64,000 bases of DNA from contig CAKPKR010000001.1 of NCBI GenBank assembly GCA_934167465.1, positions 359,732 to 423,731 on the forward strand, written 5' to 3'. The notes below the pieces were generated by a model that saw only the letters and a program-made list of their open reading frames with translations, had not been told where the DNA came from and did no database searches. Of this stretch, positions 19,729 through 63,841 are shown in pieces. Source of the DNA: an uncultured Bacilli bacterium (lineage in GTDB: Bacteria > Bacillota_I > Bacilli_A > RF39 > UBA660). How positions within the stretch are numbered: the first letter of the stretch is position 1; each line of letters starts with the position of its first letter. Both the position numbers and the translations under genes were made by a program.

Positions 19729-21408
19729 TTATAACATATTTTTATTACAATTAATCTTTTTTCCACATCTTCCGTAAGGATTTCTTATTGGATTCTTATC
19801 AACATATTTAAAAGTATAATCATCAAGTATTTTATATTTAAATTTAATTGTTATATTTCTATCTTCATCTGCTTCTATTCTATCTATTATGGTAAATAAT
19901 AAGTCTCTATTTGGTTTTTCTATATTTAATAATTCTTTTATCTTCTTCGTATAATTTGGTATTTTATTAGCACTATTTTTTCTTTTTAAAATTTCTAGTT
20001 CTATTTCTTCTAATTTATCTTTTAGATTTCCTATTTTTTCTTCATAAGGAGTTACTATCATTTTATATGATTCTAAAGAAATATTTCCATCAATTCTATC
20101 TTGATAAACAGTTTTAATATTAGAAGATAATTTTAAAATTTCTTTTGTTATATCTTTCTTTATTTTATCAAGTGATTTAGTACCTGAATTAGTTCTACTA
20201 ATTATTTCTTCATTTAATTCTTTAATACTTAATCCTTTAAATAAATCAGATAATAATTTGTTTAATTCTTCTAATACTTCTTCTTCAAAATAATCATATG
20301 GAAAGAAATGAGCCTTGCATCTACCTCTAATTGGGTCTCTAGCATATCTATTGCAGTTAATAGTCCAATAGTCATGATTCCTTCTATATATTACACCTAA
20401 TCTATTTCCACACTCTTTGCAATAGATTAATCCCTCTAATAATCTAGTAGGTCTTTTTGTTCTTACATCAACTTTTCGGTTATGATTATCTCTTTTCTTA
20501 TTAATTATTCTAAATGTCTCTTTATCTACTAATGGTTCATGAGTATTTTCAACTATTACCCATAAACTTTGATCTAGTGTTATTTTCTTTTTGGATTTAT
20601 AACTTATGTTAGTTTGAGTATGTTGTACCATATCACCTGTGTACATTCTATTTTCTAATATTTTTTTAACTGAATGTATTGTCCATACATTCTTTTCTTT
20701 TACTCTTGAAGATATTGGTAAATTTTTATAAGCACTTGGTGTTGGTGCTCCTAATTTAGTAAGACGAGTTGCTATTTCAGATATTCCTATATCATTTGCT
20801 TTCCATTCAAACATTTGCTTAACATAAGGTGCTGTATTAGGGTCTATAATTAGATGTCCTTTATCTTCTGGGTCTCTCATATAACCATAGCATGGTTTAC
20901 TACCTATAAATTTACCATCTTTTCTTTTTGCATCTAATACATTTCTTATTTTTAATGAGTTTTGTTTACTATAATAATCATTACAAGCAATAATGAATGT
21001 TGATGAATCATTACTTGCCTGATTTTTCATGCTATCATAGTTTTCAACAATGGATATAAATCTTACTTTATTTTCAGGAAAATAAGTTTCAATATAATAT
21101 CCAGTCATTACATGATCTCGACCTAATCTAGATAGATCTTTTACTACTACAAGATTAATCTTTTTATTTTTTATATCTTCAATCATTCTAATAAATCCAG
21201 GTCTATCAAAATTAGTTCCTGAATAACCATCATCTACATACTCATCTATTAAATTAAATCCATTTTTTAAACAATAGTCTCTTAATATTTCTTTTTGATT
21301 AGTAACACTTTCACTATCTGACTCATATTTTTTATCTTTATCTTCTTGAGAAAGTCTAATATAAATACCTGCATTATAACTTATATTTGTTAAGTAACTA
21401 TAATTCAT
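19729..21408 (-). CDS. Large serine recombinase: resolvase catalytic domain, recombinase domain and zinc ribbon
   Basis: N-terminal YIRLSQED...VVKDLSRLGRD resolvase motifs and a C-terminal Cys cluster (CKECGNR...CNRY...RCKAHF). 559 aa. Confidence 0.85.
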   Translation of the reverse strand: MNYSYLTNISYNAGIYIRLSQEDKDKKYESDSESVTNQKEILRDYCLKNGFNLIDEYVDDGYSGTNFDRPGFIRMIEDIKNKKINLVVVKDLSRLGRDHVMTGYYIETYFPENKVRFISIVENYDSMKNQASNDSSTFIIACNDYYSKQNSLKIRNVLDAKRKDGKFIGSKPCYGYMRDPEDKGHLIIDPNTAPYVKQMFEWKANDIGISEIATRLTKLGAPTPSAYKNLPISSRVKEKNVWTIHSVKKILENRMYTGDMVQHTQTNISYKSKKKITLDQSLWVIVENTHEPLVDKETFRIINKKRDNHNRKVDVRTKRPTRLLEGLIYCKECGNRLGVIYRRNHDYWTINCNRYARDPIRGRCKAHFFPYDYFEEEVLEELNKLLSDLFKGLSIKELNEEIISRTNSGTKSLDKIKKDITKEILKLSSNIKTVYQDRIDGNISLESYKMIVTPYEEKIGNLKDKLEEIELEILKRKNSANKIPNYTKKIKELLNIEKPNRDLLFTIIDRIEADEDRNITIKFKYKILDDYTFKYVDKNPIRNPYGRCGKKINCNKNML

Positions 21409-47089: not shown

Positions 47090-47127
47090 ATTCAAAAATT
47101 TTTTCTAAAAATATTATAAACTCCCCC

Positions 47128-47158
47128 TTGACAAAAACGTCTTGGGGGGGGGTATGAT
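47128..47158 (+). promoter_or_regulatory. Promoter TTGACA-19 nt-TATGAT whose spacer ends in a G9 homopolymer. Copy 1 of a duplicated promoter/leader block
   Basis: Consensus -35 and -10 hexamers. G9 at 47144-47152. The block CTTGACAAAAACGTCT..G9..TATGATAT..GTAAGAAAGTAGGAA recurs at 54173-54227. Confidence 0.6.
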
Positions 47159-47181
47159 ATTGTAAGAAAGTAGGAATTTAA

Positions 47182-47631
47182 ATGAAGAAATTAATTAGAA
47201 GTAGAATATTTTTGGTAATAATATGTGGTATAGTATTTACAAGTATTGGAGTTTATGCAGCAACAGCATATAAAGCAAGTGAAATATCATATACCCCAAG
47301 TGGAGGAACCGAAACAAACGTAGAAAATGCATTGAATGATATATATAATATTAAAAAGTTAGGTAATGCTACAGCAGGTGATATAGCAAGTGGTAAGACA
47401 GCGGTAGTTCAAGGAAAATTAATAACAGGAAGTTTACAAAAAAACACAGTTGGAAATTTTAGTGCTGCTATTTCGATTCAAGCATATGATTATTATGATA
47501 GTAGAAGTTCTACATTAAATTTTCAATATAAAAATGGATCAGTTACGTTAACAAATGCTGATTATTTGTCATCTAAGGATGATAGAAGATATTCTTTTAG
47601 AATAACAGGTGTATCAATTAGTGGATTATAG
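47182..47631 (+). CDS. Secreted 149-aa protein. Paralog A of the family: a shared N-terminal region of about 55 aa and a divergent C-terminus
   Basis: Signal/anchor MKKLIRSRIFLVIICGIVFTSIGVYAATAYKAS.. and a NVENALNDIYN motif. Paralog at 54228. Confidence 0.55.
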   Translation: MKKLIRSRIFLVIICGIVFTSIGVYAATAYKASEISYTPSGGTETNVENALNDIYNIKKLGNATAGDIASGKTAVVQGKLITGSLQKNTVGNFSAAISIQAYDYYDSRSSTLNFQYKNGSVTLTNADYLSSKDDRRYSFRITGVSISGL

Positions 47632-47659
47632 AAAAAAGACTTTTTTGAAAGTCTTTTTA
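47632..47659. terminator. Bidirectional terminator (aaaaagac / gtcttttt) between convergent genes
   Basis: 8-bp stem flanked by an A-run and a T-run. Confidence 0.6.
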
Positions 47660-48115
47660 TATGCATTCAACATATGTATCATTTAAACATCTAATGCAGC
47701 AGCAGCAATTTAAATTCATAGTAAAGAAACTATTAGTTGCTACAAAAGGATAAACAGAACTACCATCAGTATTTGGTGCTAAAACTCTAAATGTTGCACA
47801 ATTATCATCTATTTTTTCTATTCTGAATGCACATGAAGTATTGTCTGTTCCGTCGCATGAAGAATTAAATTCTTTAGTTGTTGGCATTTTCCATGGAGTT
47901 CCATTACCACAACAAGTGTATAACATTACTGGTCTAGTATTGCATCCCATTGTTGTAGTTCCACAACCTAAGAATCCTCTGTCACATGTATCTAGGCAAG
48001 CATCACTACATTCAGCATTTTGTTGTAAAATACAAATTACTTTTAAGATGTCTGCAACGCAATTAGAGTTTCCATTATTATTACACATATAATCCACCCC
48101 TTCTTTTATTTTCAT
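47657..48115 (-). CDS. Cysteine-rich CotY/CotZ/ExsY-like spore coat or exosporium protein
   Basis: 24 Cys in 152 aa. CAFRIEKIDDNCATFRVLAPNTDGSSV and CCCCIRCL, recalled from memory to resemble B. subtilis CotY [29 protein letters not shown] / CFCAIQCL. Needs an alignment or HMM check. Confidence 0.5.
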   Translation of the reverse strand: MKIKEGVDYMCNNNGNSNCVADILKVICILQQNAECSDACLDTCDRGFLGCGTTTMGCNTRPVMLYTCCGNGTPWKMPTTKEFNSSCDGTDNTSCAFRIEKIDDNCATFRVLAPNTDGSSVYPFVATNSFFTMNLNCCCCIRCLNDTYVECI

Positions 48116-53582: not shown

Positions 53583-54081
53583 TGTTGTTTTGTTTGAACC
53601 AGAAATACCTGGTAATACAGGAAATATAATGCGTACTTGTGCAGGAACAGGTGTTAAGTTGCATTTAATAGAACCATTAGGTTTTAGATTAGATGAAAAA
53701 AGTATAAAAAGAAGTGGTGTTAATTATATTGAACATTGTGATTATAAGGTATATAAAAACTTCGATGATTTTAAATCTCAAAACGAAGGAACATATTACT
53801 ATCTAACTAGATATGGAAGGAAACCACATACCTCATTTGATTATAGTAATAAAGATGAAAATATTTATATAATATTTGGCAAAGAAAGTACAGGTATTCC
53901 TAAAGAAATACTTAGTAAGGATTTAGACCATTGTATGAGGATGCCTATGAATGATAATATAAGAGCATTAAATTTATCTAATACTGTTGCTATAATGGTT
54001 TATGAAGTATTAAGACAACAAAATTATCGTGATTTATTATTTACTGATCCATTCAAAGGTAGTGATTATTTAGAAAAATAA
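53575..54081 (+). CDS. trmL: SpoU-family tRNA (cytidine/uridine-2'-O)-methyltransferase TrmL
   Basis: SPOUT motifs (VLFEPEIPGNTGNIMRTCA, IIFGKESTGIP, LNLSNTVAIMVYE) and length about 170 aa. Confidence 0.8.
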   Translation: MINVVLFEPEIPGNTGNIMRTCAGTGVKLHLIEPLGFRLDEKSIKRSGVNYIEHCDYKVYKNFDDFKSQNEGTYYYLTRYGRKPHTSFDYSNKDENIYIIFGKESTGIPKEILSKDLDHCMRMPMNDNIRALNLSNTVAIMVYEVLRQQNYRDLLFTDPFKGSDYLEK

Positions 54082-54173
54082 CGAATTAGCGTTATTTTTT
54101 TAATATATAATTTTTTTATGAAATTATATATTAAAAAATTAATATATATTATGAAATTATTATAACATTTTTC

Positions 54174-54204
54174 TTGACAAAAACGTCTGGGGGGGGGGTA
54201 TGAT
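54174..54204 (+). promoter_or_regulatory. Promoter TTGACA-19 nt-TATGAT whose spacer ends in a G10 homopolymer. Copy 2 of the duplicated promoter/leader block
   Basis: G10 at 54189-54198. The flanking sequence is identical to copy 1, including the leader GTAAGAAAGTAGGAA. Confidence 0.6.
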
Positions 54205-54227
54205 ATAAGTAAGAAAGTAGGAAAAAT

Positions 54228-55058
54228 ATGAAAAATATAATAAAAAGTAGAGTATTTTTAATACTAATATGTGGTTTAATATTTACTGGGTTAGGGGTCT
54301 ATGCAGCAACCACATATAAAGCAAGTGATGTAGTATATAATGCCACTGATGGAACAAGTATGAATGTAAATGATGCTTTGAATGAATTATATAATAAAAG
54401 TGGAAATAAAGGATACTACTATTATTACGAAAATGGAACAGCAATATATTATAATCCAGTAAGTGGAACAAAATGTAATGCTAGTGAAGCTGTAAGTACA
54501 ACAGGAACAAAAACAGGATGTATGAAATGGTATACATTTAACGATGATAGTGAATCATCAACAGTTAATATGATATTGGATCATAATACAACTTCTTCGA
54601 TTGAATGGAGTTCAAGCAAAAAAAATGTTGCATATGAAGAAAGTTACGTAAAACCAGAAGTTGATAAGTTGATAAGTGTTTCTAATTGGAAAGATATCCC
54701 TAGATTAATAAGTGCGGTTGAAGTAGCCAAAATAACTGGCAAGACAGATTTTAATAGTTTAGATGATACAACATGGTATTATTTAGATACTAATATTCAA
54801 ACCCAAATATCAAAATCTAAAGGAACAAGCAAGTATGCCTGGTTGTTTGACTATACAAATGGATGCACAAGTTATGGATGTAATATAGAGGATGTAAATA
54901 CATATGGGTATTGGACGTCAACAACATATGTAACGACTTCATCTGATAACTATGTGTGGAATGTAAACTGGAATGATCTTTTGTATAGCCATAATGCTAA
55001 CTATATTGGTAATGGTATTCGTCCAGTAATAACAATTTCAAAAACAAAACTTTCTTAA
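54228..55058 (+). CDS. Secreted 276-aa protein. Paralog B of the family at 47182
   Basis: N-terminal MKNIIKSRVFLILICGLIFTGLGVYAATTYKASDVVY...NVNDALNELYN is shared with paralog A. The C-terminus is unrelated, Y/W/T-rich. Confidence 0.55.
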   Translation: MKNIIKSRVFLILICGLIFTGLGVYAATTYKASDVVYNATDGTSMNVNDALNELYNKSGNKGYYYYYENGTAIYYNPVSGTKCNASEAVSTTGTKTGCMKWYTFNDDSESSTVNMILDHNTTSSIEWSSSKKNVAYEESYVKPEVDKLISVSNWKDIPRLISAVEVAKITGKTDFNSLDDTTWYYLDTNIQTQISKSKGTSKYAWLFDYTNGCTSYGCNIEDVNTYGYWTSTTYVTTSSDNYVWNVNWNDLLYSHNANYIGNGIRPVITISKTKLS

Positions 55059-55139
55059 AAATATAATAAAATAAATAAAAAGATTGTCAAATCTTTTTTT
55101 TAATGATAATATATAATATAGAGAATAGAGGAGGATACT

Positions 55140-62132: not shown

Positions 62133-62258
62133 AGTAGTGCTTTCAACGAGAAAGCCGAAATGATCTTTGAAAACTGAGCAAAAATGTCAATTCATAAGTT
62201 AGGAAAAAACAATTCAAAACTTAAAAAGTCTGACAATGCTTTTTTATTGTCAACATTT

Positions 62259-63841
<1,583 letters not shown>

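Follow-up and report, generated by a model that had tools for sequence, protein, structure and literature searches.

Poly-G promoter spacers of variable length precede a modular family of predicted exported proteins in uncultured gut Bacilli: a candidate phase-variation system

Homopolymeric tracts embedded in promoters are known to govern the expression of surface-protein genes in several bacteria. In Treponema pallidum tp0126 and Neisseria meningitidis porA, a poly-G tract that sits between the -35 and the -10 hexamer controls the gene, with an optimum of 17 nt for tp0126, and for tprE/G/J tracts of G8 or fewer are permissive (PMC7864442). In Mycoplasma hyorhinis, a poly-A tract present in every vlp promoter switches the genes, and their independent switching yields combinatorial variation of the surface (PMC10502178, citing Citti & Wise 1995). 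Here we analyze a 64-kb stretch of DNA from an uncultured Bacilli bacterium (contig CAKPKR010000001.1, positions 359,732 to 423,731; hereafter the window), which harbors two copies of a promoter and leader block with a poly-G tract, each located ahead of a gene for a predicted exported protein (47182-47631, 149 aa, and 54228-55058, 276 aa). We propose, with a probability of roughly 0.7, that slippage in the poly-G tract of the promoter spacer switches the members of a multi-gene, phase-variable family to which these two genes belong.

Phase variation through simple sequence repeats (SSRs) in promoter spacers is a known kind of system, and the window loci can be compared directly with its described instances. 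As in porA and tp0126, a G run, with natural lengths of about 8-11 (PMC7864442), lies between sigma-70-type hexamers of a gene for a (here predicted) surface protein and sets the length of the spacer. The described cases come from Gram-negative and spirochaete pathogens, whereas the host here is a low-GC (~25%), spore-forming, uncultured gut Firmicute; the tract precedes every member so far recovered of a large modular family; and the modal spacer is 19 nt rather than 17 nt. Like the Vlp genes, each gene constitutes its own unit, with a conserved 5' cassette (homopolymer promoter, leader and export signal) and a divergent C-terminus, and its host belongs to the same low-GC Bacilli/Mollicutes neighborhood. 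In contrast to Vlp, the homopolymer is poly-G instead of poly-A, a lipobox is lacking, the C-termini consist of unrelated, non-repetitive globular domains rather than tandem-repeat regions, and the genes are dispersed among housekeeping genes rather than clustered. The mycoplasma Vlp system is the closest analogue as a system, and the window family is an analogue of it, not a member.

The two copies of the block span 58 nt each (47127-47184 and 54173-54230), in agreement with the original prediction, made from a first reading of the window, that the block recurs downstream of its first copy. A search of the window located the exact 16-mer CTTGACAAAAACGTCT at 47127 and 54173 only, and blastn aligned positions 54141-54223 with 47095-47176 at 82% identity. 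At the DNA level, the copies are similar between about -87 (82% over 83 nt) and position +169 of the coding sequence (CDS; 74%), corresponding to codon 56, and not beyond it. Assigned by consensus only, the promoters read TTGACA - 10 nt - G9 - TATGAT in copy 1 (47128-47158) and TTGACA - 9 nt - G10 - TATGAT in copy 2 (54174-54204), with 19 nt between TTGACA and TATGAT in both (47134-47152 and 54180-54198). Each G tract is followed by TATGATAT, a leader containing GTAAGAAAGTAGGAA and the ATG, and the element GAAAGTAGGAA in the leader is conserved across both window copies and their relatives. Neither promoter appears in the list returned by a consensus promoter scan, which accepts spacers of 16-18 nt only.

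In a window with a GC content of ~21-29% (2-kb bins, the 16S rRNA gene excepted), the tracts at 47144-47152 (G9) and 54189-54198 (G10) are the only G/C runs of at least 6 nt and the only G runs of at least 8 nt, for which shuffled sequences lead one to expect 0.07 matches. The different G counts of the two copies had been taken in the original prediction as evidence that tract length is unstable. This argument does not hold: G9 and G10 differ by a T-to-G substitution at a fixed position and both spacers measure 19 nt. Because the substitution leaves spacer length constant, the two window copies alone do not demonstrate length instability.

To compare tract lengths between strains, as the original prediction had recommended, we used public metagenome contigs and metagenome-assembled genomes (MAGs) encoding identical or related proteins (the L001-L066 series). 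The metagenome contigs are short-read consensus assemblies, and any single case of one G more or less may be a homopolymer error. Tract length differs among otherwise identical contigs at several loci. Contigs encoding a protein identical to the 54228 product show no difference outside the tract over the 1.5-3 kb compared: L003, with G10, matches the window without a single difference over 1.7 kb, one extra G (G11) is the sole difference of L001 over 3 kb, and one G fewer (G9) is the sole difference of L002. Similarly, at the 47182 locus one extra G (T+G10) is all that separates L008 and L009 from the window over 3 kb; T+G10 is found also in L005, L006, L010 and L011, T+G9 in L013, and G10 without the T in a slightly diverged lineage (L007, L012, L014 and L053). 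The orthologue of the 149-aa protein in a sister lineage (P0126) presents G10, G11 and G12 in three samples, with 0 differences in ~710 flanking nt. Furthermore, both G9 and G10 are found at the P0135 locus and at the locus of a pilin-fused homologue (P0047), and both G10 and G11 at the P0025 locus. Change in tract length is the commonest, and often the sole, difference between near-identical strains, and it occurs in both directions; this is the repeat-length polymorphism with otherwise identical flanks by which SSR promoter-spacer contingency loci are recognized. L001 and L005 are the same contig (ERZ27287303 k141_253527), in which each of the two promoters has exactly one G more than its window counterpart (G11 and T+G10); chance, a bias of the strain or a technical cause could account for this shared excess.

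The search for further copies of the block, also recommended in the original prediction, returned ~20 more distinct family genes with the tract in related gut metagenome contigs and MAGs, and every recovered gene encoding the shared N-terminal module (N-module) described below has a tract promoter. The design consists of a -35-like hexamer (TTGACA, TTGACT or TTGATT), 9-10 nt, G8-G12 and then TATGAT or TATAAT; in nearly all family promoters the -35 hexamer lies 9-10 nt 5' of the tract and the -10 hexamer directly 3' of it. Spacers measure 17-21 nt with a strong mode at 19 nt (G10), and the geometry is retained where the sequence of the spacer diverges (L020, L062-L066). In 326 kb of related AT-rich loci, a biased genome sample chosen for carrying the family or the tract, 50 of the 50 G/C runs of at least 8 nt sit at family-type promoters. 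The loci adjoin secE-nusG, spoIIR-mntP, rpsD-ezrA and other housekeeping genes; tandem pairs of family genes, each with its own tract, are found in L035 and L044, and a single metagenome (OGPT01) contains ten family contigs. The tract travels with the gene family and not with the locus.

Several relatives depart from, or add to, this design. A conserved CGAACAAAATTTCT box lies 5' of many family promoter copies. The only family promoter met with a 17-nt spacer (G8; L061, 10506-10530, minus strand) has a weakened -35 (TTAACA), and its gene carries a 7-residue deletion in the N-module. In the MAG CAKOTA01, the poly-G promoters of two family genes (L033, 435-550 and 4647-4758) lead into a conserved leader of ~100 nt (AATCGACAAATTAYTTATGTAAAAC...) instead of the usual ~23 nt, and the spacer of the first gene is apparently 21 nt. 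More distant relatives (L020, L062-L066; e.g. L062, 1441-1500), some of which encode fusions of a type IV prepilin with the lectin-like payload described below, possess a second type of cassette in which a GTTTGC-N5-GCAAAC palindrome overlapping a TTGCCG -35 is followed by G9/G10, TAWAAA, CCYCTC and T6-7; its geometry (hexamer - 9 nt - G9 - hexamer) is the same as in the window, and its RNA has two predicted hairpins, one of them a terminator-like stem pairing the G run with CCUCU (-17 to -20 kcal/mol). The hexamer - 9 nt - G10 - hexamer design was also found ahead of unrelated genes in other gut bacteria (Firmicutes) (L025, 4396-4416; L032, 7321-7341; L026, 5656-5677; L030, 632-651), as TTGACA - 9 nt - G10 - TATAAT or CGTCT-G9/10-TAWRAT, with a search pattern that imposed CGTCT and not TTGACA at 9 nt. 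The genes in question encode two ~520-aa proteins (with TasA/SipW-like signal peptides and an AYF motif), a flagellin and a lipoprotein with Listeria-Bacteroides repeats.

Aligning the downstream proteins, as had been advised, established that their N-terminal homology is real: BLASTP of the 149-aa against the 276-aa protein yields E = 3e-23, with the similarity confined to residues 1-57 and none in the remainder, as anticipated in the original prediction. The claim that the gene family is small, on the other hand, fails, since an exhaustive phmmer search with residues 1-60 returned 299 cluster representatives at the 50% identity level. Among the 150 matches listed of these 299, nearly all carry the module at the N-terminus, in residues 1-60, in proteins of ~130-300 aa; a profile search with the N-module alignment against a word-indexed database gave mainly short fragments at contig ends. 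Positions Y25, A26, Y37, V47, A50, L51, L54 and Y55 of the module are near-invariant, and cleavage of the products may take place after VYA. Two other readings of the window proteins' N-terminus were considered and rejected. It contains no canonical lipobox, LICG having Ile at -1 and the Cys being absent in many paralogues, which speaks against a lipoprotein, and neither a G-F-T-L-I-E motif nor a PF07963 match, which speaks against a prepilin.

Diversity in the family lies in the C-terminal parts, which in 137 full-length members sampled form ~90 groups without mutual BLAST similarity. Pfam names few of these payloads, among them H_lectin, F5/8 type C, NedA-like galactose-binding, DUF6273 and BclA_C, and where it does, the domain is often of a lectin or ligand-binding type; one relative has a phage tail-fiber/Gp10_C domain. 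No significant family was found for either window protein in Pfam, NCBIfam or PHROGs. The AlphaFold2 (AF2) model of the 149-aa paralogue has low confidence (predicted local distance difference test score, pLDDT, 50), and its C-terminus has no assigned fold. Orthologues of the 149-aa protein (P0123, P0126-P0131; window 47182-47350) share one C-terminus, while patches of their N-modules have given way to sequence from other paralogues: in P0123 the chimeric part lies within residues 24-50, and in P0131 both the whole N-module and the linker are those of another family member. These patchwise N-modules point to gene conversion or module shuffling among cassettes. Scans of IMG/VR for the block and for the protein were both negative, leaving a phage-borne origin without support in that database.

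The product of the 54228 gene combines an N-terminal hydrophobic helix with a VYA/A site, four invariant Cys and a predicted lectin-like fold. In its AF2 model (pLDDT 84.5), residues 5-23 form a helix; a small N-module made of a hairpin plus a helix follows, and from residue ~60 onwards there is a globular domain modeled with confidence. In structural comparisons, the payload of this predicted model resembles solved CLec/DUF1566/DUF6273 domains, with matches to an immunoglobulin A (IgA) protease of Thomasclavelia ramosa (chain 9qa6; score 10.3), the C-terminal domain of Legionella Lcl (8.7), T. denticola TvpA (7.0) and many C-type lectins and FGE-like proteins (5-6). No Pfam match of any kind was obtained for the window protein, PF19789 (DUF6273) at its gathering threshold included; some homologues have precomputed PF19789 matches, mostly weak. 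The N-terminal domain of the ThomasA IgA protease is annotated as DUF6273 (PMC12402451), and the BFVD matches of the payload are phage DUF6273 proteins, a group described as C-lectin-like receptor-binding modules (PMC10743442). The four invariant Cys fit an extracytoplasmic protein, and the model suggests that the payload is a disulfide-bonded domain of the C-type-lectin fold.

This DUF6273/DUF1566 fold is common to the ThomasA N-terminal domain, the Legionella Lcl C-terminal domain, the variable proteins of diversity-generating retroelements (DGRs) and phage "tentaclins". Unlike in DGR proteins, variation here would arise by expression and domain swapping, not by mutagenic retrohoming, and the window contains no template repeat: a blastn search of the 54228 CDS against the window revealed no second copy of its 3' part, a reverse transcriptase not having been specifically searched for. 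In related bacteria, payloads 53-65% identical to that of the 54228 protein are fused to a canonical type IV prepilin N-terminus (e.g. P0047, PF07963). These homologues share the G9/G10 tract and the promoter geometry as well, whereas the window protein has a different N-terminal module and no prepilin motif. The prepilin fusions of the same payload support a displayed, ligand-binding role for it. We do not regard the window family as a member of the Vlp, pilin or DGR groups, because the defining features of each were looked for and not found. For the family products in general, export, a surface location and ligand binding are predictions drawn from these features. The features of the two window loci are compiled in Table 1.

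Table 1. Features of the two poly-G promoter loci in the window
Feature	Position	Strand	Remarks
Small terminator-like hairpin and T-run ending the upstream SpoU/TrmL-type methylase gene	54078..54101	+	-3.4 kcal/mol, z = -2.6
A/T-rich region 5' of the -35, possible UP-like element	54141..54173	+	Partly common with copy 1; conserved in L003, L004, L017
-35 hexamer TTGACA, perfect consensus	54174..54179	+	Read in sequence
Promoter spacer, 19 nt: AAAACGTCT + G10 (54189-54198)	54180..54198	+	
-10 hexamer TATGAT	54199..54204	+	Read in sequence
Short 5' leader with ribosome-binding site GTAGGAA at 54217-54223	54205..54227	+	
Predicted signal peptide or membrane anchor, codons 1-26: MKNIIKSR + hydrophobic core + VYA/A	54228..54305	+	AF2 helix residues 5-23; family-conserved
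N-module, codons 27-57 (ATTYKASDVVYNATDGTSMNVNDALNELYN)	54306..54398	+	~65% identical to 47182 protein
Payload, codons 58-276 + stop: predicted C-type-lectin-like fold (DUF6273/DUF1566-like), four invariant Cys	54399..55058	+	
Terminator-like hairpin and U-run 3' of the 54228 gene	55072..55102	+	RNA fold -6.5 kcal/mol, z = -3.0
Copy 1 promoter: TTGACA 47128-47133, spacer AAAACGTCTT + G9 47144-47152, TATGAT 47153-47158	47128..47158	+	
Paralogue, 149 aa: same N-module, GNATAGDIASGKTAVVQGKLITG linker, small unrelated C-terminal domain	47182..47631	+	

The mechanism that we propose builds on the promoter anatomy, the family, the fold and the tract-length polymorphism between near-identical strains that we observe. 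The original prediction had read homopolymer-bearing promoters, conserved N-termini and variable C-termini as a contingency-locus design, and the ~20 genes with tracts, the length variation between strains and the N-terminal homology support this core. Consensus-grade hexamers are joined here to a spacer that is too long by 1-2 nt, a pairing known also from phase-variable promoters of the spacer type such as porA and tp0126, in which 17 nt is the optimum (PMC7864442). Each member would be transcribed from a sigma-A-type promoter with near-perfect hexamers, in which a G9-G10 run set against the -10 makes the 19-nt spacer over-long. The G run would be a hotspot for slipped-strand mutation, and gain or loss of a G would take the spacer to 18-21 nt, or down to 17 nt, thereby altering the alignment of the hexamers. 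A spacer of 17-21 nt could in this way set or grade the transcription of each member independently, stochastically and reversibly, with G8-G9 (17-18 nt) predicted to be ON or permissive and G10 or more to be low or OFF. Both the start of transcription and the effect of tract length on expression are projected from sigma-70 spacer rules and from tp0126 and porA. With a shared promoter and leader, a shared signal or anchor plus a ~30-residue N-module, and exchangeable C-terminal binding domains, the likely outcome would be a gut bacterium in which every cell displays its own random selection of ligand-binding proteins, at the surface or secreted.

Several considerations weigh against such a switch. 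Some of the differences of one G could be Illumina or assembler homopolymer errors. Many contigs end at the cassette (L002, L013, L019, L021, L040, L043, L046, L055 and L059), and the repeated 5' cassette may explain these breaks equally well as tract heterogeneity. In the second type of cassette, the G run could fold into an RNA hairpin. Given the strikingly uniform mode of G10 and 19 nt, an OFF state at 19 nt would mean that almost every member is switched OFF in almost every consensus assembly; on the other hand, a tract of G10 may act like a shorter spacer, and 19 nt may be functional. A simple random walk does not explain the 19-nt mode: most members could be kept one step from ON, or G10 could be the functional configuration. 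The latter is the main rival to the switch. Here the G tract would be a fixed, required promoter element, serving either to bind a regulator specific to the lineage or as a rigid, A-form-like stretch with which a 19-nt spacing works, and length differences of one G would be neutral noise or sequencing error. The tight centering of tract lengths on G10 and 19 nt across species and loci agrees with it, as does the retention of the tract where the flanking spacer sequence has diverged, and both the CGAACAAAATTTCT box upstream of many copies and the GTTTGC-N5-GCAAAC palindrome over the -35 of the second cassette type could be operators. Yet at five or six loci a change in length is the sole difference in otherwise identical stretches of 0.7-3 kb, and such changes go both ways and cover G9 to G12; this is the pattern typical of slippage and does not resemble random sequencing error. 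For a regulator site, moreover, there would be no need of a homopolymer, which is mutationally costly to maintain at ~25% GC. We consider a purely fixed element improbable, while noting that it and the switch are compatible with each other; in the tpr promoters of T. pallidum, poly-G occurs together with CRP (PMC7864442).

A second alternative would place the promoter further upstream and make the G run one arm of a hairpin in the RNA leader, acting as an attenuator or terminator. The second cassette type lends itself to this interpretation, the G run in L020, L062 and L066 pairing with a downstream CCYCUC-U6 (-17 to -20 kcal/mol, z = -2.2 to -2.6), and a C5 run that copy 1 has just 5' of its -35 (47123-47127) could pair with G9 (-19.5 kcal/mol, z = -2.7). 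That C5 run, however, has no counterpart in copy 2 and has decayed to CTCTCCC in L007, L012 and L014; the block at 54173-54230 has neither a partner for its G run nor a predicted structure (-3.1 kcal/mol, z = -0.1), and a terminator-like hairpin lies just 5' of it; and the tract keeps a constant geometry between a perfect -35 and a perfect -10 hexamer. We therefore deem a leader hairpin very improbable as a general account: a role at the RNA level is unlikely for the 54173-54230 block, and it remains a caveat for the second cassette type. An ordinary gene duplication with a homopolymer arisen by chance and devoid of regulatory meaning could be entertained as long as only the two copies in the window are considered, their G counts differing by substitution, but it is hardly credible in view of the ~20 further distinct family genes that carry the tract, the lack of any other G/C run of at least 6 nt in the window and the variation of tract length between near-identical strains.

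Terminator-like hairpins bracket both window genes, suggesting that each is its own (monocistronic) transcription unit; a consensus terminator scan missed these hairpins, whose stems are AT-rich. The gene upstream of the hairpin at 54078..54101 matches PF00588, and a complete bacterial 16S rRNA gene lies at 62258-63839 (Rfam, 1522 bits). A Cys-rich open reading frame with a CotZ-like spore-coat domain (47657-48115, minus strand) is convergent with the 149-aa family gene, and the two have in common a bidirectional terminator-like hairpin at 47633-47658; Pfam matched the domain in the 143-aa product that is called for this frame in the homologous contigs. Genes for SpoIIR, SpoIID, a CotZ-like protein and Cse60 neighbor family loci, which identifies the organisms as endospore formers, and those relatives to which GTDB records give a name are MAGs labeled "uncultured Bacilli bacterium", obtained from Hadza gut samples. 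A large serine recombinase gene (Resolvase + Recombinase + Zn_ribbon_recom; 19729-21408, minus strand) sits inside a minus-strand block at ~17.6-32 kb with opposite gene orientation and inverted GC skew, which may represent either an element that has integrated or an excisable one of the sporulation type. In L044, a recombinase of similar kind adjoins the tandem family-gene pair.

Extending the proposed switch to the whole lineage leads to a broader scenario that we hold only as a tentative, rather doubtful possibility: a lineage-wide, multi-locus SSR "phasome" in uncultured, spore-forming, low-GC gut commensals, with possibly at least 10 dispersed single-gene cassettes per genome, each combining a poly-G promoter, a common N-terminal docking and export module and one of hundreds of swappable binding domains, and with gene conversion shuffling the modules. 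Under this scenario, the N-module would dock the payloads on one shared surface structure, and phase variation would pick the occupant.

We found no description of the family in the searchable literature. Three things set it apart from known promoter-spacer systems: the host, an uncultured gut commensal that forms spores and, at ~25% GC, has no other G runs in the region examined; the uniformity with which a large modular family keeps to the design; and the diversity of the payloads. The sequence suffices for recognizing the system, since that region has no G runs other than the tracts. A 2025 review noted that multi-locus, repeat-driven phase variation is apparently restricted to pathogens, an open question that may reflect database bias (PMC11868660); a candidate multi-gene phase-variation system in a human-gut commensal bears on this apparent restriction. 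The lectin-like payload fold is found also in phage receptor-binding proteins, in the Legionella Lcl adhesin and in pilin fusions, and the proteins of the family are candidates for strain-level variation in interactions with host glycans, phages or IgA.

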